A stretch of 35,139 nt of DNA from a virus, in the UHGV virus genome UHGV-0098759; one strand, 5' to 3'. Below the pieces are notes generated by a model. It was not told the origin of the DNA and searched no databases. It saw only the letters and a list, made by a program, of their open reading frames with translations. Each line of letters starts with the position of its first letter. The stretch's first letter is position 1. A program made the position numbers and the translations under genes. Positions 5,817 through 33,735 of the stretch are shown in pieces.

Positions 5817-8800
5817 TTAAGAAACAGTAATACCAGTAGTGGCTTTTTTAGTTACCATTACTGTTAGATCGCTGATATATGCACTTGGGTTATAGTTGTT
5901 AACACCATCACAAATAACTTGGAATGTTAACGTTACAGCACCTTTACCCGCTGGCATGTCAATAACGCCTGTGTACATGCTGCCAGAAGTAGCCGTGCGA
6001 TCATATAGAACAGAGCCATTTTTCTTAACGATTAATCGGCAAGTGTCCCAATGATCACTACTTTCGCCACGACGAACAGACCCGTTATGGTGAATAGCTG
6101 GAATCACAATTTGGCGATCAAACTTATGATCATCTTCCACCCTTACCGTAACAGTGCCATCAGGCCAGTTTTGTTGACGATGAGGGAATTTCTTACCAAT
6201 CACCTTAACGAAATCACCCTTAACCTGAGTAGCTTCAAGCATACCCTTAATAACACAGCTAGAGTTAATCGTGACGTTGTTCAGAGTACCAGAATCAGCC
6301 GTGATATTACCTTTAACGGTAGCATTCATGAACGTAGCGGACCCGTTCTTGTTGATATGCCATCCGGTAGATCCGTTCCAGTTGGAAGACTGGATATAGT
6401 TACCAATTTTGGCGTTATCAATTGCACCGTTTACGATCTTGGCGTTAGTGATTGCCCCGTCCTGAATCTTCGCGCTGTTAATTGCAGCATTTCCGATCTT
6501 AGCGGTAGTAATCGCCGCATCATTAATCTGGGCTGTGCCAATTGCAGCATTACGAATCATCGCATTATCGAGATAAACCTTGTTACCTTCGATACCAAAC
6601 GGGCAAACATCGGTCCCGTTCTGCGGAGCTACAGCAATTTTATCAGCCGTAAAGATGATTTTAGTCGGTTGTGCCGGATCGTTGGTTGCGCTCATGTGAA
6701 TACCAGCCACGCGACCATCTGCATTAACTGCCAGATTGTATTTGCTGTTAATGGTTCCTTTCAAAGCATCGATTTTTACATCTGCTTCCTGATTCACACC
6801 AGCAATCTTGCCATCCATTTCTACCCGAACTTGATCAATCTTACTTGCGCTTGCTGCCTCACTGGTAGCAATAGCTTGTTTCAGGGTAGTAGCAGATGCG
6901 CTAACTTCTTTGGTGATATCGCCTTTCAGTTCAGCTTTAACCTGATCAATCTTAGTTGCACTGGCTTGATCACCAGAAGTAATCAGACTCTTTAAGGTAT
7001 CGGCTGAGGCTTGCACCGTCTGCCCTGTTTCGGTAGTGATTTGCTTATGCATTGCATCAATTTTAGCATCGGCATTAGCGCCAGCTTGAGCAATAGCATC
7101 AGCGATGGTTTCATCTAAGCGATCTTGTAAACCAATCAGGTCTTCCAGTGCTTCTTTGTCCTGGTCGTCCCAACTAATCGTAGACTTCATAGACATGAAA
7201 TAAGGTTCGGACCAGACAGCATCATCCATACCGAAAATATCGTAGTGAGCACCACGGATATAATAATCACCGTCAGCAATATCAAAGGAAGTATGGCTAA
7301 CACTATTCGTGCTTACTGCCCTTGCATCGGAGAAAGTGTTATCGGTTGCATACTGGATGATTGACCCTGCATAGTCATGTTCTACGTCATCTGCCCAGCT
7401 AACAAACGCAGTATTAAAGCCACCACGCGCACTAAAACCTTTCATTGGCTTATGCTGTGGGTTGATAGCCACTAAACGCGCTGGGGCGCTCTCTGAGTTG
7501 TTATAGCCCTTAGCTGATACTTCTACCGTCAGTTGACGCGAAAGGCCGTTAAACTGGTTCATATCAAGCGTATAAGTCCATGATTCAGGATCGCGGGTAC
7601 GGTACTGAATAGACTTACCAGCCTTGTTAGTCACCTTGATAATGTATGCTTCAAACAGGTCACTAAACTTGTTAGTTTCCCCGTTGATCTCAACATCTAA
7701 TTGTTGCTGATTTTCCCATTCGATAATCAGATCATTACCTTCGAAAGTTCCTGGCGTGCTACCCTGATTTTTGATTCGAATAACCGGAGTCGGCAATTCA
7801 TATGTAACAGTTGGATTCTGGTTAATCAGTTCTACCCAATCGGATCGAGCGATGATACCGAAAGCACAAACTCGGTAATCATAAGAACGATCTTTTGCCA
7901 GTGCATTGACACTGAAAATTTGCTGTGAAGTCTGTCCCAGCTTAATCCAGTTAGGTGATCCGCTTACACGGTAATCAATCTGAAAACCATAACGGTTAAA
8001 ATCTTCCGGCGCATCCCATGTCAAAGTAACGTTTTTACCGTAAATCGTCTCGCCAGTTGCCTTAATTCTGAAATTAGTAGGCTTCTGTACTGTCATTGAA
8101 TCCGGTAAACCACTTGGTCTATTGTCTGGAGTTGCCGCATAGTTCAGGTCAGTATAAACCTGAGAATTATATTCTGTGGCGGTGATAGTCATCATCCCAG
8201 CAATACCAGAATCAATCGAGCGATCAATTGCAGTAATACGCCATAAGGAATTATTCAGCTTCAATTCATCATAGGTTACGCTGATAACGTCCCATACTTC
8301 GGCAGTGAATGCGTCAGTAGTCATAAAGCTGATAACCTGAGTGATACGAGATTTATTTCGTTCAATACTCGCAAGTTTATCAATCTGGTCTTTAGACTTA
8401 ACGAAACGATATTCTACATCCTTAGCAATAATTCGACCATCTGCGCGAACAGTAGCATCGTTTTCAGCATCAGCCGGATAACGTAGCATTTGCTCTGAAT
8501 AGTCGATTGATGGTTCCTGATACATTGCGTTAATGGTATTGAAATAACCGTTAGTGCCACCTGTTTTCAGTGATACCTTACCCATCATGATATTGTCTTC
8601 ATTGAAGGTATGCTTAACAATATCAGGAGCATCCAGTTTCAGCGTAATACGTCCAAAGGATTCGAACATCACCCCGCCGAAAGTCTGCATAAGACTGGTC
8701 AAGTTCTCTTTAAAGCTGGCGTTCGGATCACATGCACCGTTTGAATGTAGGTCCATCTGGCGTACTTGTTTACGTACTTTCAGGAATGAATCAACGTTGA

Positions 8801-23135: not shown

Positions 23136-24647
23136 TTAGGGATCGGCTGGGGAATTTTTTTCTTCACCCTCGCCATTAACGATAATATTTAGTGCGCTCT
23201 TTTCGGCTTGAATCTCTGAGAATACTTTTTCAGGATCATCACCACGTTCAAGAATAACGGCAGTACGTGATTTAAGTCCTTTATCAATTAAAGCAATATC
23301 AGCGTTTACGTCTTTAATAACATCGACAGACTCGAAACGTGGCCTGATAATAGTAGTGTTATCGATAATATGTGGAATTGCAGTAATACGAATCGGAACA
23401 ATACCACGCGCAGAATAATGACGCAGATACGCTTCGAAAATTGGCAACACCACTGTTTCAATCAATTTGTTTTGCAGCGATTTAACACGGTTACGTTGAA
23501 GCAATTCGCCGAAACGCGCGGCTGAGTAGTTGATTTGTGAACAATCTCCTGTTAAGCCCTGTTTGAACACGCCTAAGCCCATTGATACGCTAGTAAACAT
23601 CGCATCATTGAAGGAATTGAAATCATCGCCTGATTGAGTAGCTTGGATTGATTTAATCGTTGCCCCTTCCGGCAATTCCTGAATAGTACCCGGTGCAAAA
23701 TCCTGTACTACTTCCGGCGCTTGATATTGTTCATCCTCTTCACCAGTATCAAAATCGTCACCAGAATCTTTCGGACGTTCGATAAAGCCCATAGAGCTAG
23801 CTGCAATACGTTTCTGGATGATCGCGGTTTCGCGGAATGCGTCTTGATGCGCAATATCCTTGATCACTGGCAGGAAGTCAGTCACACCACGCAGAGATTC
23901 GGCCGCAAGTGGTTGATAATAATGGCATACTTGCGAAGCATCTACGCGATAGTTATCACCTGTGTAAGTCTGAGTCAGTAGGTTGATTTTACGAAACCAA
24001 AATGCAACAGGGCGCATTGTTTCTACGTCATACTCGATCCCCTGATAGATAGCGCGTTCTTTGCTTACTTCACGGTTGAGCGTCCAGTCGCACTTATCAG
24101 CAGACAGGATAGAAACATTTAACTCATTGTTTTCTTTGGTTAAAACTATGAAGCACTCACCACCCATAACGCGCTCACGTTCAGCCATTACCAGCAATTC
24201 ACGGAAGTTAAAGCGACCGTTACGAGAGAAGCGTTTAGCATTCTGCGCCCACTTCCAGAAAGCATTCTCGATCTGCTTATTCAGTGCGCTATCAAGTTTG
24301 CCATTTGATTTAACAACTGACGGCTTCGGATCTAGACCAGTACCAACCACCATATCGGTGATGTATTGCGTGTAGCGACTGCCTACGGAAGTGTTTAAGG
24401 CCAGAGTACGACCCTGATCATAAAGGCGCTTACCGTTCGATTTGAGAGCCTTATTGAAGGTTCCTGTGATAGTATCTTGTTGAAGCGATCCATCAATGCG
24501 ATCACCAACCAGTCCTAAACTACGTTTAGATATGTCTTTCTGGTATCTTTCTATAGATTTGTCGATGAAAATTTTTGGTTGTTGCTGGCGGTGATTAGTT
24601 TTAACTGGAGTTTCTACCGCCTTTTTGCGTCGAAAAAGATTAAACAT
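23136..24647 (-). CDS. portal protein, lambda B-like
   Basis: 503 aa, directly downstream of the large terminase region and upstream of the protease-capsid gene; RBS AAGGGG. Confidence 0.8.
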   Translation of the reverse strand: MFNLFRRKKAVETPVKTNHRQQQPKIFIDKSIERYQKDISKRSLGLVGDRIDGSLQQDTITGTFNKALKSNGKRLYDQGRTLALNTSVGSRYTQYITDMVVGTGLDPKPSVVKSNGKLDSALNKQIENAFWKWAQNAKRFSRNGRFNFRELLVMAERERVMGGECFIVLTKENNELNVSILSADKCDWTLNREVSKERAIYQGIEYDVETMRPVAFWFRKINLLTQTYTGDNYRVDASQVCHYYQPLAAESLRGVTDFLPVIKDIAHQDAFRETAIIQKRIAASSMGFIERPKDSGDDFDTGEEDEQYQAPEVVQDFAPGTIQELPEGATIKSIQATQSGDDFNSFNDAMFTSVSMGLGVFKQGLTGDCSQINYSAARFGELLQRNRVKSLQNKLIETVVLPIFEAYLRHYSARGIVPIRITAIPHIIDNTTIIRPRFESVDVIKDVNADIALIDKGLKSRTAVILERGDDPEKVFSEIQAEKSALNIIVNGEGEEKNSPADP

Positions 24648-25223: not shown

Positions 25224-27137
25224 TTAAAAGTTATTTACCCACCCACCACGACGCACAGGACGCGCCATAGGACGACGATTAGGTTTGTGATGAGTGATTG
25301 GCTTAGTTTCTTCGATTTGCTCGTTAGAATGTGATTTAGGAGCTTCTACGGTTGCTTCTGGTTCACGATTCAGCTTTTCTTTCATTGCAATGAGCTTATC
25401 CCATGACATTTTTGAAAGAACATAGCGAGAAGCCGCATAGCTATAAACCAGACAGTCGAGCGCCTCGTTTCGTGTCGCACCTGGATTTTTTACCCAACGT
25501 GTTCCAGTAACAGTACGCTTGATGGATTCACTCAAAAGCTGATCGAGATAATCATCAGGAACGGTTTCTGATATCTCTAAACCAATATGAGGGTTTTCTT
25601 TCAAGTTGCGTGTTAATAGCTCACGAATAGCCGTTTTACCCACGTTAACGCCCAACATAAGCAATTCATGACCACCCGTGGTAGTTGGTTTCACCGGAAT
25701 GATTGGAGCAGTACCAGATGAACTACCTTTGATTGCGTGTAAGTTCTTCCACTTACCACCGCAAATACGGTATCCGGCTTGAGTGAATCGACCGTTCGAT
25801 GTATCAAGGAAGCTGGCGAGCATAGGAACACGATCACCCGATACAGTAGTAAATTTGGTTTTATGGAAGTTGATTAATCTGTCCCATACAGGAGATTCAT
25901 ATCGTTCACAGTTATGGTCGTAAAAGCTGCGATGATCCAGAATATAAATCTTATCCTTTGCCACGCCCATGATCGTAGTTTCTGCGCGATCTAATTGCTG
26001 GTCAGTACCCGCACACAAGAAAATCACGTCATCAGGGATATTCTCGATAGAAACATCTGTTTTGAGTTGTTCCAGTTCATTTGCTTCTACTGCCGTGTCC
26101 TGATCGTCGTATACCTTACCTAACACTGTGTTATAAAATGATTGTAAATCAAAGGATTGCCACGCATGACTAAAATCAACCACACAAGCGCGGATACTAC
26201 TGAAAGGTGAATACAGACGGCTGATCCAGAATCCTGCTACTTCACTTTCACGGGTTGCTCTCCACTCGCCTTGCGCTACTGCCCTGATTCGTTCCCCTTC
26301 TGTCCATGATTGCTTACAGTGGGGGCAAATATAACGAGCGGTATCAGGATCGGGTAAGTTCTTACCATCGATGTTACGCCATTCAAATTGAACGTTTTCC
26401 CACTCGATCACCTGGTGTTCCCCGCAATGAGGACACGGAACAAAAAACATACGCATATCACTTGATAACCATTGCTGGTTAATGATTCCCAGCTTATTGG
26501 TTGGGGTACTAGAAACAATCAATCGAGCTTCATCACCAAAGGTAGTTAAACGGTTTGCAGTTAGTGCCACCGGACAACCTTCTTCGGTGATTGTTGCTGC
26601 GTCGCATTCGTCTACAATCCCTAACTTGGCAGTACGCCCACGCAAACTTGAAGGACTGGTCAAAGAAACCATGTAAAGGAAATGGTTTGTTTTTAGCTGA
26701 ATCTGGTTATTGTTGTTTACCGCATTACGATCATTCTTATCTGTTACCACTTCCTGTAATGCCGGACATGCTTCAATAGAAGGACGGATCTTAGTATTCA
26801 AGTACATAGCCACTTCTTTAGCGGTACTTTGCCCGATAATGATATTGCACGGATCGTTTGCCATCTGGTTAAACATGATCCCTGACATGATGGTCGTCTT
26901 TCCGATCTGCGCACTCGTACAAAAAACGTACTTCTTTTTCTTCTCAAGGAAAGGAGCATCAATCATGCCTTTCTGAAATGACAGTAATTTAACTTTATCC
27001 CCAGCACGAGGACCATCGACTAGCGTTAGATTCGCTTCGCACCATTCAGAAGGAAGGAGTTTAGGCGGTGGCGTAATATATTTGGCTGCATTTCTGAGAA
27101 TCTTTTTTAATTTGGCCTTATTAGAAATCAGTTTCAT
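25224..27137 (-). CDS. terminase large subunit, lambda A-like
   Basis: 637 aa; CPHCGEHQ and [14 protein letters not shown] motifs match the corresponding lambda large-terminase segments as recalled; RBS GAGGG. Confidence 0.9.
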
Positions 27138-27225
27138 GTAATTACCCTCATTACGAAATATGAAGGTATTTATTAAATTGTTGATATTTTGATAAATACG
27201 GGTATTAAGATTTAAGGGGGGGTGT

Positions 27226-27312
27226 ATGCTAATTAATCAGCAAGAAAGAGATGAATTAGAATTAGCCTTGTCTTGTCTTGTCTTGTCTTGTCTTGTCTTG
27301 TACCGATCATGA
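27226..27312 (+). CDS. 29-codon leader ORF with strong RBS that reads through the (CTTGT)7 repeat and stops at TGA
   Basis: ATG at 27226 preceded by AAGGGGGGG; frame is +1 out of register with the long downstream ORF; the repeat tract lies inside it. Confidence 0.35.
27267..27301 (+). repeat. perfect pentanucleotide tandem repeat (CTTGT)x7
   Basis: Read directly: cttgt repeated seven times from 27267 to 27301, at the 5' end of the 191-aa ORF. Confidence 0.95.
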
Positions 27313-27853
27313 ATATCGTTTGCCAGTAAAACATAAGCACTTAAAGACCGACTACACAACATCTGGCTTTAGTCGTGAGGAAGCTAAACAGATTTTAATC
27401 GAGTTGTATCGTGATAATGGGTATACCGATATTCATAACTTCTTTAAGAAGCATCGCACATCACAGACAGAGTTTCAGCGAGTCCGTGAGTGGTTTGATT
27501 TTGACATTAAGCGATTCTATCGAGTAGATGACGGTCCTATCTATCGGTTGCAGTGGACACCGATCAGGGAAGTGCTTAAACAGAAGAGATTGAATCATGC
27601 CATTACACGCTATCGTAACGTGGCTTTTAAGAAAGACTATGGTGATACAAGAGAACTATTCGTTGAACTCGCTAACGTGAAGTACAGCCACTATTACAAC
27701 GATCCTAAGTCCTTCTTTGAAGTGCTTCGCAAGGTTGATATAAGTCGGGGTACATATTATTCACGGTTGAAGAAGTACGGGATTAAGGTTGAGTTCTTTA
27801 TGTCAGTTGACGATGGAGAACTTTTTCCTATAAAATCTAAGTCCTCTAAATAA
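27278..27853 (+). CDS. tandem-HTH protein with two resolvase-type HTH-like modules; start codon uncertain
   Basis: Track ORF starts at TTG within the repeat; no in-frame ATG for about 175 codons; C-terminal module (GTYYSRLKKYGIKVEFFMSVDDGELFPI) is paralogous to the 86-aa and 60-aa proteins. Confidence 0.5.
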   Translation: MSCLVLSCTDHEYRLPVKHKHLKTDYTTSGFSREEAKQILIELYRDNGYTDIHNFFKKHRTSQTEFQRVREWFDFDIKRFYRVDDGPIYRLQWTPIREVLKQKRLNHAITRYRNVAFKKDYGDTRELFVELANVKYSHYYNDPKSFFEVLRKVDISRGTYYSRLKKYGIKVEFFMSVDDGELFPIKSKSSK

Positions 27854-27882: not shown

Positions 27883-28116
27883 ATGACTATGACTACTAAA
27901 GCTACTCGCGGTCGTCCTGCCCGTTTTAATCGTGAACAACTGGCATACATTTGCTACGAGTTTTACAAAGCTGGCAAGGGTAAAGAAAGCAGAGAGAAAG
28001 TATTAAACGATCTGGGCATCTCCACCGCCCAGTTTTATAAAAGTATGAAGAAACTTAATGTCGAGTTCTTTATACGTGTAGACGGTGGAGAGGTTGTACC
28101 AATCAACGGAGTTTGA
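27883..28116 (+). CDS. small resolvase-type HTH DNA-binding protein (paralogue)
   Basis: ATG at 27883 with GGAGA RBS; TRGRPARF...GISTAQFYKSMKKLNVEFFIRVDGGEVVPI resembles the resolvase C-terminal HTH; track ORF begins at GTG 27856. Confidence 0.55.
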   Translation: MTMTTKATRGRPARFNREQLAYICYEFYKAGKGKESREKVLNDLGISTAQFYKSMKKLNVEFFIRVDGGEVVPINGV

Positions 28117-28125
28117 TTCTCATTG

Positions 28126-28150
28126 CCACTCTTCGGAGTGGCTTTTTTAT
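28126..28150 (+). terminator. intrinsic terminator with UUCG tetraloop (GCCACUC-UUCG-GAGUGGC, then U6)
   Basis: Perfect 7-bp stem, UUCG loop and T6 run immediately after the 86-aa gene. Confidence 0.7.
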
Positions 28151-28164
28151 ACCTATAGAAAACA

Positions 28165-28194
28165 AAAAGCCCCTGAAATTCAGGGGCAAAAATT
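28165..28194. promoter_or_regulatory. palindrome GCCCCTGAA-A-TTCAGGGGC containing one copy of the TTCAGGGGCAAAAAT iteron
   Basis: Perfect 9-bp inverted repeat whose right arm is identical to the iteron unit of the 30541-30716 array; lies between convergent genes. Confidence 0.5.
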
Positions 28195-29864: not shown

Positions 29865-29988
29865 AGTGGAAATCCTCTAAAAGAAAGTGAATCAATCTAA
29901 TATTATTTATAAAGAGAAAATTCTTGTTATTATGAAAAGAGTGATCTGGTAGAGTCCAAAACTGGTCTGTACTTGAAAGGTGATTGGA

Positions 29989-30399
29989 TTCAGTCGGGCT
30001 AAAGCCCTCCTTCATAGATTTTGATTAAATCATCACCAAAACGAAGAAGTATCTTTAGAATATAAGAATCTTTCTTTTGAAGAAATAATAATCAGGAAGA
30101 AATTTAGCAACCGAAGGTTGCAATCCCGAAGGGATACCAATACCTTTCTAGAAAGTGATTGTTACTCACTTCGTTCGTTTACTAGAATCAGTTAGTAACT
30201 AGTTTAAAATCCCTTTCAAGAAAATCCTTTCAGAAGTGATTCTCGATGCCACGCAGTGGCGTCGCAGACGTTTGAGAGTGAGCGAAGCGAGCGAGCAAAC
30301 TAGTTAATTCCTTCTAAGACCATCTAGTATCATCTAGTTTAAATTAGTGTTACTAGAAGTAATTGGTTAGCGCTTCGCGCAGTCGGGCTACGCCCTCCT
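29989..30399. repeat. pair of 20-bp direct repeats (CAGTCGGGCTA[A]AGCCCTCCT and CAGTCGGGCTACGCCCTCCT) bracketing about 370 bp of ORF-free sequence
   Basis: Read directly at 29989-30009 and 30380-30399; the interval holds two adjacent GAA-loop hairpins (30106-30136) and short internal repeats (ACTAGTTTAAA, TTACTAGAA). Confidence 0.5.
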
Positions 30400-30540
30400 A
30401 ATATCTTTTTGGTTATTTGTTGTTTTTGGTTTTACACATGAGCGTAGCGAATGTGTTATATAATATCTATGCACGCCCAATTCCCCGTTTTTGCCCTCAC
30501 TAACTTAATGTTTTATAAAGAGTTTTTCTTACCAATCCTT

Positions 30541-30716
30541 TTCGGGGGCAAATTTCAGGGGCAAAAATTAGATTTTCAGGGGCAATTATTGGCATTTCAG
30601 GGGCAAAAATGAGGGGCAAAATCACTGTTTCCCAGAATTTCAGGGGCAAAAATAGTGGGTTTCAGGGGCAAAAATGGGATGTGAAATCTAGGGGATTTTG
30701 GTTCAGGGGCAATTTT
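30541..30716 (+). repeat. iteron array: about 8 direct copies of TTCAGGGGCAA(A/T)(A/T)AT at roughly 21-bp spacing
   Basis: Copies start at about 30541, 30554, 30575, 30596, 30612 (partial), 30639, 30661 and 30702; an inverted partial copy lies near 30485-30498. Confidence 0.8.
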
Positions 30717-30753
30717 CATAGTGTAGGGCTAGTGTAGGTTTGAAAGTCCTTTG

Positions 30754-30782
30754 TTGACACTGTGTAGGAACAGTGGTATAAT
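30754..30782 (+). promoter_or_regulatory. perfect-consensus sigma70 promoter with extended -10 (TTGACA-N17-TGgTATAAT)
   Basis: TTGACA at 30754-30759, 17-nt spacer, TATAAT at 30777-30782 preceded by TGG; directly downstream of the iterons and upstream of an AT-rich tract. Confidence 0.65.
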
Positions 30783-31233
30783 TGACAATTCGAGATAAAT
30801 ATGTTATAATATTTGTATTGAAAGTAAAAATTTACCGATTTTCCTTCCTATTGTTATTATCCTGTTAAATTGTTATATGTCTGTTAAGGTTTGGATCTGA
30901 GAGAAAATCCTGTAACAAATCTTTACAATTCATAGCTCAATTAATACTCACCGCTTTAGCAAAAAGTGCTATGCATTTTTCTAAATTGATTAAATATACA
31001 TCAATTTGGTTAAATCGCGTTCTTCGCTTTAGCAATTCGTGCTGTGGTTTAACACATTTAACACGCCTGATAACATCTGAATAACATTTTAACATATCTC
31101 TGTTATAAATACATATATAAGAGATAAATGTGAGGGGTTGAAAAATTAAAAAACAATCCCCGTATAAATAACAATGAGCGGTTAACGCTCTTTTTTTTAA
31201 GAAATAATTAATCCAGATTTAGGAGGATTCAAG

Positions 31234-33180: not shown

Positions 33181-33735
33181 TTAAGACACATCAAATTCAT
33201 CGTCTTCTTCTGGTTCTTGTTCCGGTTCATCCATTAATGCTAATTCTTCTTCCTCGTCTTCTCCCAAATCTGCATTTTCGAACAAGTCCCCTACTTCATT
33301 TAAACGACGTTCGATGATCTCCCTTAGCTTATTCTTCAATGTTTTCTGATCAGTGGCGGATTCTAAAATTTCTAGGGCATCGATCGTACAAATCTGCAAA
33401 ATAGTCTGTTTCACTTTCCCGCAGTATTCCGCTAGTTCCTGTTCTACATAACCGACAGGAATCAGGAGATTCATTTTTTCCTGGTTCTCTCGTTCGGCTG
33501 CATCTGCCAAAGCACGTTCACGGCGTAATTTCTCTACGTCGATTTGTTCTTTGATAGAAGTTTGTTTAAGCGGGTTGATAATATTTTTCAAGACCCATTC
33601 TGTTCCTTCTTTGGCTGGCACGCGGCGGGTATTGGTGTTAAATGGCAATCCCCTTTCTAACCATCGCTTACCGCCACCATTCAATGTATAGCCATATAAA
33701 CGGGAAATTTCTGTAAGGGTTAATTCTTCTTTCAT
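33181..33735 (-). CDS. putative terminase small subunit (Nu1-like HTH) or HTH DNA-binding protein
   Basis: N-terminal HTH pattern (LTEISRLYGYT...W...GLPF) and GGGK segment resemble the lambda Nu1 N-terminus; coiled middle; very acidic C-terminus; RBS GGAGG. Confidence 0.4.
   Translation of the reverse strand: MKEELTLTEISRLYGYTLNGGGKRWLERGLPFNTNTRRVPAKEGTEWVLKNIINPLKQTSIKEQIDVEKLRRERALADAAERENQEKMNLLIPVGYVEQELAEYCGKVKQTILQICTIDALEILESATDQKTLKNKLREIIERRLNEVGDLFENADLGEDEEEELALMDEPEQEPEEDDEFDVS

Follow-up and report, generated by a model that had tools for sequence, protein, structure and literature searches.

A prophage of Escherichia coli carries a gene whose reading frame is set by a run of CTTGT units that differs in length between near-identical copies of the element, and on comparative grounds this arrangement looks like an on/off switch of the slipped-strand type, which is rare in E. 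coli. The gene encodes a probable DNA-binding protein. The true start of the gene, the rule by which unit number sets the frame, the variation in unit number, and the natural occurrence of both ON (in-frame) and OFF (out-of-frame) alleles are established. Judged by the assemblies compared here, the repeat genuinely varies in length and sets the frame, and it is not an artefact or a peculiarity of one dead gene.

The DNA analysed (35,139 nucleotides, here called the window) is a 35-kb E. coli prophage, of which a 100% identical contig exists in IMG/VR, and matching chromosomal prophages were present in 54 of 5,426 complete E. coli genomes. The element in strain 24AR0357 splits the hicB gene and has genes for a large serine recombinase, lysis, tail, head, a gpA-type large terminase and a Rha-family regulator, with no recognisable repressor or replication genes among its contents. 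The nearest sequenced phages are distant, with the best terminase and capsid matches being 43–46% identical. Some copies of the prophage bear lesions. Strains PI7 and GCA_009910525 share an insertion of ~106 bp with duplicated CTAG flanks (110 bp in total; L001 2812–2920, corresponding to ~27020–27023 of the window) within the large terminase gene, which is annotated as a pseudogene; the insertion ends in terminal inverted repeats (GGAAGGTGCGAATAAG / CTTATTCGCACCTTCC) and looks like an IS5-type miniature element (MITE). The portal gene, a single 1512-nt frame in the window (23136–24647), is annotated as two coding sequences in 24AR0357 (657 and 888 nt; L015 27697–29321), which suggests another inactivating change in that prophage copy. 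The window also holds a tandem repeat with a 60-nt period (6419–6555; 2.3 copies, 74% matches) in the gene for a 1248-aa tail-tip protein.

The CTTGT tract is a perfect (CTTGT)7 on the plus strand at 27267–27301 (7.0 copies, 100% matches in TRF). Its period-5 run of 35 nt did not arise by chance, as the longest such run in 300 simulated windows of the same composition was 17 nt. Upstream of the tract, an ATG at 27226 stands 3 nt behind a Shine-Dalgarno-like AAGGGGGGG (27214–27222, plus strand) and opens a frame that passes through the repeat to a TGA at 27310–27312, so that the 7-unit allele encodes a truncated product of 28 aa (27226–27312, plus strand). The long frame, which ends at 27853, is in the +1 register relative to this ATG; its earliest possible start is a TTG at 27278 inside the repeat, and its sole in-frame ATG lies near codon 175. 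The first-pass annotation had described exactly this arrangement, and both the frame calculation and the list of open reading frames confirmed its coordinates, including the stretch of ~175 codons devoid of an in-frame ATG. Its remark that the long frame has no Shine-Dalgarno sequence of its own also stood, for none precedes TTG 27278 or a further candidate start, TTG 27320. Beyond the tract, the remainder of the gene (27302–27853, plus strand) comprises 183 codons and a stop in the +1 frame and is intact in every allele seen.

We then rebuilt the locus with 1–14 CTTGT units and recomputed its reading frames. ATG 27226 was joined to the long frame at 2, 5, 8, 11 and 14 units, and all other unit numbers within this range gave peptides of 18–42 aa. 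The element that sets the frame is a perfect repeat of a unit not divisible by three, positioned inside the frame and 3′ of the authentic start; unit numbers that leave a remainder of 2 after division by 3 turn the gene ON, and the seven units of the window leave it OFF. The expectation that gaining one unit or losing two would fuse the ATG to the long frame was borne out by this computation, in which 8 and 5 units are in frame, and both of these alleles exist in public assemblies.

Other small changes occur nearby. A second micro-repeat, (GAATTA)2, lies just 5′ of the tract (27253–27264, plus strand), and strain HCP5S3_I4 is missing one of its units, which leaves an in-frame protein of 198 aa. 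Several strains have an extra TGT codon after two CTTGT units (201 aa). With such changes in relatives including L026 and L003, the 5′ region of the gene is a general indel hotspot. The G run of the ribosome-binding site is G7 in the window's lineage and G6 in a second lineage with an expanded tract, and the same site reads GGGGGTT or GGAGGG in most unexpanded relatives and GGGGGG in one (L016), making it a second short mutable run directly before ATG 27226.

The assignment of the start codon comes from the homologues. Using the 8-unit, in-frame construct as the query, protein searches found 36 homologues from prophages of E. coli, Salmonella and Proteus, all annotated as hypothetical. Because ~30 of these are full length (~200 aa), span the whole 8-unit construct and have the same N terminus, conservation identifies ATG 27226 as the authentic start. 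Within the N-terminal segment, conservation across the family reaches at least 90% at D9, E10, L13, A14 and S16, and one homologue (P0036) lacks the N-terminal helix. At the site of the tract the homologues read LALSCT, encoded by GCC TTG TCT TGT ACC, which contains two CTTGT units; some have degenerate versions of this pair, such as CTTTTCTTGT or CTTGTCTTGTTGT. The window allele corresponds to the ancestral pair plus five further units (25 bp), which shift the frame. All 12 of the unexpanded relatives that we examined have the 2-unit or a degenerate form, as do most relatives overall, with 52 of the 54 complete E. coli genomes that carry the locus being <99% identical to the window. The family is tiny: a profile search of 1.84 billion representative proteins gave 15 hits which, some weakly matching repeat-HTH proteins aside, were either fragments or proteins of Enterobacterales prophages. 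In public annotation, OFF alleles appear as a truncated protein of 177 aa or 191 aa that begins at an internal TTG, and this masks the true start as well as the switch.

Two prophage lineages, ~92% identical to each other in this gene, have expanded tracts, and within each we could compare unit numbers among nearly identical DNAs. In the window's lineage, seven units (OFF) were found in the complete genome of PI7 and in GCA_009910525 (each with 0 point differences and the 110-bp terminase-gene insertion), in GCA_053667825 (0 differences over 3.5 kb), in GCA_030511005 (0 differences over 2.9 kb), in an ENA metagenome scaffold (0 differences over 3.6 kb) and in the identical IMG/VR contig (L008). 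24AR0357, with 0 mismatches over 7 kb, has six units (OFF), and GCA_012739335.1 (L023), the 8-unit DNA of which was found via the neighbouring 75-aa gene, has eight (ON), with 0 mismatches over 1.7 kb. In the second lineage, an IMG/VR contig with nine units and a metagenome contig with seven differ by 1 SNP over 8.8 kb. With only 0–1 point differences over 1.7–8.8 kb separating prophages of differing unit number, the tract changes faster than point mutations build up over several kilobases. The 7-unit allele accounted for seven of the nine DNA-verified assemblies of the window's lineage, and a 7-unit tract was found in seven assemblies besides the window (a complete chromosome, three drafts, two metagenome contigs and the IMG/VR contig).

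Exact look-ups of the proteins predicted for synthetic alleles, among ~15 billion proteins, extended this series. The 5-unit ON protein was found on 1 contig of the window's lineage and 10 of the second, and the 8-unit ON protein on 2 and 1, respectively. The 191-aa OFF product (6 or 7 units) was found on 63 and 11 contigs, the 177-aa product (any OFF allele) on 31 and 6, and the 196-aa product (9 or 10 units) on 1 contig of the second lineage and none of the window's. In the same ~15 billion proteins, the 2-unit and 11-unit ON proteins had no exact match in either lineage, nor did the 14-unit ON protein, queried with the sequence of the window's lineage. For the window's lineage, OFF products on 63 and 31 contigs thus compare with ON proteins on 3. 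ON alleles make up 11 of 23–29 contigs of the second lineage, a share that equals or slightly exceeds the one-third that free drift would give. Among the short peptides of OFF alleles, the 32-aa peptide of the 6-unit allele was found, on a 58-kb contig separate from the 4.9-Mb 24AR0357 chromosome; the 28-aa peptide had no match, probably because it is too short for gene calling. In all alleles the CTTGT tract is perfectly pure, and no allele has another disabling mutation, the downstream frame being otherwise intact. An invariant unit number, which the first-pass annotation had named as speaking against its proposal of a possible phase switch, is therefore not what the relatives present: near-identical prophages have 5, 6, 7, 8 or 9 units, and as far as comparative data reach they support the phase-switch interpretation.

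Outside this gene, a scan of representative bacterial genomes for (CTTGT)4 or longer (L028–L107) found >120 loci in unrelated taxa, including several per genome in Desulfomonile and Brachyspira assemblies, so CTTGT is possibly a recurrent mutable unit elsewhere; none of the loci in these representative genomes was in a relative of the gene studied here.

The encoded protein belongs to no described family that we could identify: Pfam, PHROG, NCBIfam and PADLOC gave no family match, a sequence search of the PDB found no solved relative, and neither the DNA of the locus nor the protein of a homologue matched any of 50,697 phage records. We therefore turned to an AlphaFold model of a close homologue (P0002, pLDDT 75). 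The model has an N-terminal helix (residues 5–16), a low-confidence linker (residues 16–29, pLDDT <50) and two modules, the first of three helices and a beta hairpin (residues 42–99, ~27374–27547) and the second of three helices and a beta strand or hairpin (residues 134–186, ~27650–27826). The LSCLV pentapeptides encoded by the repeat map to the disordered linker of the model and, because they fall there, the in-frame insertions of the 5- and 8-unit alleles would be tolerable. Weak profile hits (E 2e-4 to 8e-4) were to proteins built of tandem HTH_23/HTH_28 units, and the modules are probably winged-helix, DNA-binding modules, as predicted from the model. The first-pass annotation had called this an HTH gene. 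The weak tandem hits and the two modules would fit that label; Pfam had no hit and Foldseek returned nothing significant. 'Probable DNA-binding protein' is a reasonable description, and 'HTH regulator' is unproven. A role as the small terminase subunit was considered and rejected, as the PHROG small-terminase match of this prophage is to a different gene (33181–33735). That match (PHROG 57, E 6e-11) marks the sole small-terminase-like gene, and 6 kb separate it from the large terminase gene (25224–27137); the repeat gene, Rha, an iteron-like region and others occupy this interval, an unusual order for a gpA-type packaging module.

The gene shares its upstream DNA with the late genes. The large terminase gene, on the minus strand with its start at 27137, heads the structural/late operon, and the 88 bp between it and the repeat gene (27138–27225) form a divergent control region. 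This region is almost invariant, with nearly all alignment columns identical in seven prophages; the coding DNA of the same seven differs by up to ~18%. It contains a 12-nt inverted repeat (GTATTTATTAAA at 27166–27177 and TTTGATAAATAC at 27188–27199) and, by eye, a TTGATA-16 nt-TATTAA arrangement, at which a strict promoter scan made no call. Two 8-nt direct repeats, TTGATATT TTGATAAA, occupy 27181–27196, and a third copy is present in strain BS74R-D (L004); possible roles are a binding site or a promoter element.

Downstream, a 75-aa gene (27889–28116, plus strand; WP_075631287.1) encodes a single-module paralogue of the C-terminal module, with 40% identity to P0002 over 40 aa (BLASTP, E 3e-8). 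It is followed by a terminator-like hairpin that was identified in a scan, GCCACTCTTCGGAGTGGC (28125–28142), and then a T run, TTTTTTATAC (together 28125–28150, plus strand), and the hairpin closes a compact two-gene plus-strand unit made up of the repeat gene and the 75-aa gene. Such a layout, in which the unit and the late operon diverge across the control region, would be expected for a regulator that shares a control region with its target. In strain ETEC1738 (L027) the 200-aa gene has been cleanly deleted between two ATTAAG microhomologies (window 27210–27778), which leaves the 75-aa paralogue in place, directly behind the conserved control region. Because the ETEC1738 prophage is without it, the gene is dispensable for prophage carriage. 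Elsewhere in the window, the iteron-like TTCAGGGGCAAA occurs in eight same-orientation copies at 30541–30713, in a 1.37-kb stretch that has no annotated gene (29865–31233), and a further copy at 28179–28190 forms a palindromic 'terminator' directly after the Rha gene. There are 11 matches to TTCAGGGGCAAA, compared with 3 expected by chance, and the copies could be a replication origin or an array of regulator-binding sites.

We consider it probable, though well short of certain, that this prophage gene is switched by strand slippage within its 5′ coding region, which sets the frame. In this model, the ancestral GCC TTG TCT TGT ACC, with its two CTTGT units, would have expanded to 5–9 units in two prophage lineages, after which replication slippage of the 5-nt unit would displace the downstream frame. 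With 5 or 8 units, cells would make the protein at full length, its linker extended by one or two LSCLV pentapeptides (ON), and with 6, 7 or 9 units translation would end after 28–37 codons (OFF). We infer that unit changes are frequent and reversible enough for a heritable stochastic switch. OFF alleles presumably yield little or no functional protein, because the internal TTG codons have no ribosome-binding site, and a polar effect of the OFF state may reduce expression of the 75-aa paralogue downstream as well. Because the tract is short (5–9 units), switching would probably be slow, and the dominance of the 7-unit allele in the window's lineage likewise suggests a modest switching rate. 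The protein would presumably act on DNA, with the divergent control region as one candidate target, and the switch may alter prophage behaviour.

A more elaborate version of this model, which we hold to be rather unlikely, is that the tract is a heritable coin-flip on the prophage's own regulator, in which a tandem winged-helix protein would bind the control region or the TTCAGGGGCAAA iterons and lysogens would alternate between a locked (OFF) and a phage-producing (ON) state. If this reading were true, a phage contingency locus would be hedging dormancy against transmission, which would explain the accumulation of OFF alleles in sequenced lysogens. A role for the protein as a repressor of the late genes is disfavoured, in that OFF lysogens are common and viable.

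Returning to the frame switch itself, a possible but doubtful alternative is neutral decay, in which a chance expansion would have killed a dispensable gene in a domesticating prophage, the tract would have drifted in length, and in-frame alleles would be unselected by-products. Several observations fit such a history: the 7-unit OFF allele that dominates the window's lineage could be a dead allele that has spread clonally, ETEC1738 has lost the gene by deletion, some carriers of OFF alleles are damaged elsewhere (the terminase MITE of PI7, the split portal gene of 24AR0357), most relatives keep a stable 2-unit form, and repeat-based switches are rare in E. coli. However, decay does not readily account for ON alleles of two lengths in both lineages, for a second-lineage ON fraction that is not below the free-drift value, or for tracts that are perfectly pure in all alleles within a frame that is intact everywhere else, and the expansion is exactly at the site that the model marks as an insertion-tolerant linker. 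The dN/dS of 0.10 between the two expanded lineages also speaks against decay, an argument weakened because the first 98 nt are identical between them and the low ratio may come from recombination with unexpanded relatives.

It is also conceivable, though we judge it very improbable, that translation of OFF alleles begins at TTG 27278 or TTG 27320, or resumes by re-initiation after the short frame, and gives a protein shortened at its N terminus, such that repeat number would set the isoform rather than the presence of the protein. The NCBI pipeline calls a 177-aa protein from TTG 27320 in 6- and 7-unit genomes, the stop of the short frame is 7 nt 5′ of this TTG at 7 units and overlaps it at 6 and 9 units, and homologue P0036 does naturally without the N-terminal helix. 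Nevertheless, the annotated start is merely the choice of a gene caller, neither TTG has the Shine-Dalgarno sequence that precedes ATG 27226, and the shortened protein would lose the conserved N terminus. Finally, a sequencing or assembly artefact, which the first-pass annotation had kept in mind and for which nothing speaks beyond the general tendency of repeats to be miscounted, is effectively refuted, because the 35-nt tract is far below read size and seven independent assemblies from different technologies agree on 7 units. The same holds for a programmed ribosomal frameshift that would bring the 7-unit allele into frame, because the junction (27302–27312) has no known slippery motif and at 6 and 9 units the shift would have to go the opposite way from that at 7 units.

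A slipped-strand frame switch at this locus would resemble the contingency loci of Haemophilus, Neisseria, Campylobacter and Moraxella (tetra- and pentanucleotide tracts; lic, mod, opa), in which a slipped-strand 5′ repeat likewise sets the frame and alleles likewise differ between otherwise identical strains. Switches based on repeat length typify such host-adapted pathogens with small genomes; in E. coli they are very rare. Whereas those four genera each have such loci in large number, with tracts that are longer and lie mainly within surface or restriction-modification genes, the CTTGT locus stands alone in E. coli, is carried by a prophage, has a short tract and concerns a protein that acts inside the cell. 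Among phages, a gene with a heritable stochastic expression state also brings to mind Mu gin, P1 cin, diversity-generating retroelements and P22 gtr. The invertible segments of Mu and P1, the retroelements, and the Dam/OxyR control of P22 gtr operate by inversion, retro-mutagenesis or methylation and act on tail fibres or O-antigen modification, and to our knowledge none of them is a repeat-length frame switch.

A phage precedent for the mechanism is nonetheless provided by neuO, an O-acetyltransferase gene carried as cargo by the CUS-3 prophage of E. coli K1 and described as phase-variable; neuO was OFF in 65.6% of 64 genomes (PMC13001214). Like the CTTGT locus, neuO is in an E. coli prophage and has a perfect repeat with a unit that is not a multiple of three in its 5′ coding region, makes the full-length protein at only every third unit number, translates and tolerates its in-frame units, and has ON as well as OFF alleles in public genomes, where OFF alleles outnumber ON. 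The neuO unit is 7 nt (AAGACTC) and present in 3–53 copies, compared with 5 nt (CTTGT) and 5–9 copies here; neuO specifies a capsule-modifying enzyme of known phenotype, whereas the present gene specifies a probable DNA-binding protein and adjoins a terminase-led late operon; and switching is a measured property of neuO and a proposed one of the CTTGT locus. With no acetyltransferase or other Pfam domain in the protein and a different repeat unit, there is no homology between the two, and the likeness is one of mechanism. By this analogy the CTTGT locus would work like neuO but is unrelated to it. The earlier expectation that such an architecture would be unusual in a phage regulatory gene consequently needs qualifying: neuO is a precedent in a phage, and the expectation holds for DNA-binding and regulatory genes, for which our literature search found no repeat-length frame switch in a phage; a search for CTTGT repeats likewise returned nothing relevant.

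If the preferred reading is correct, the natural series of alleles with 5, 6, 7, 8 and 9 units in sequenced strains makes the rate of switching, expression and any effect on prophage induction directly testable. As neuO is the textbook example from an E. coli prophage, the CTTGT locus would be a second, unrelated case, and the first that we could find in a probable DNA-binding gene set against a phage late operon instead of in a surface-modification gene.
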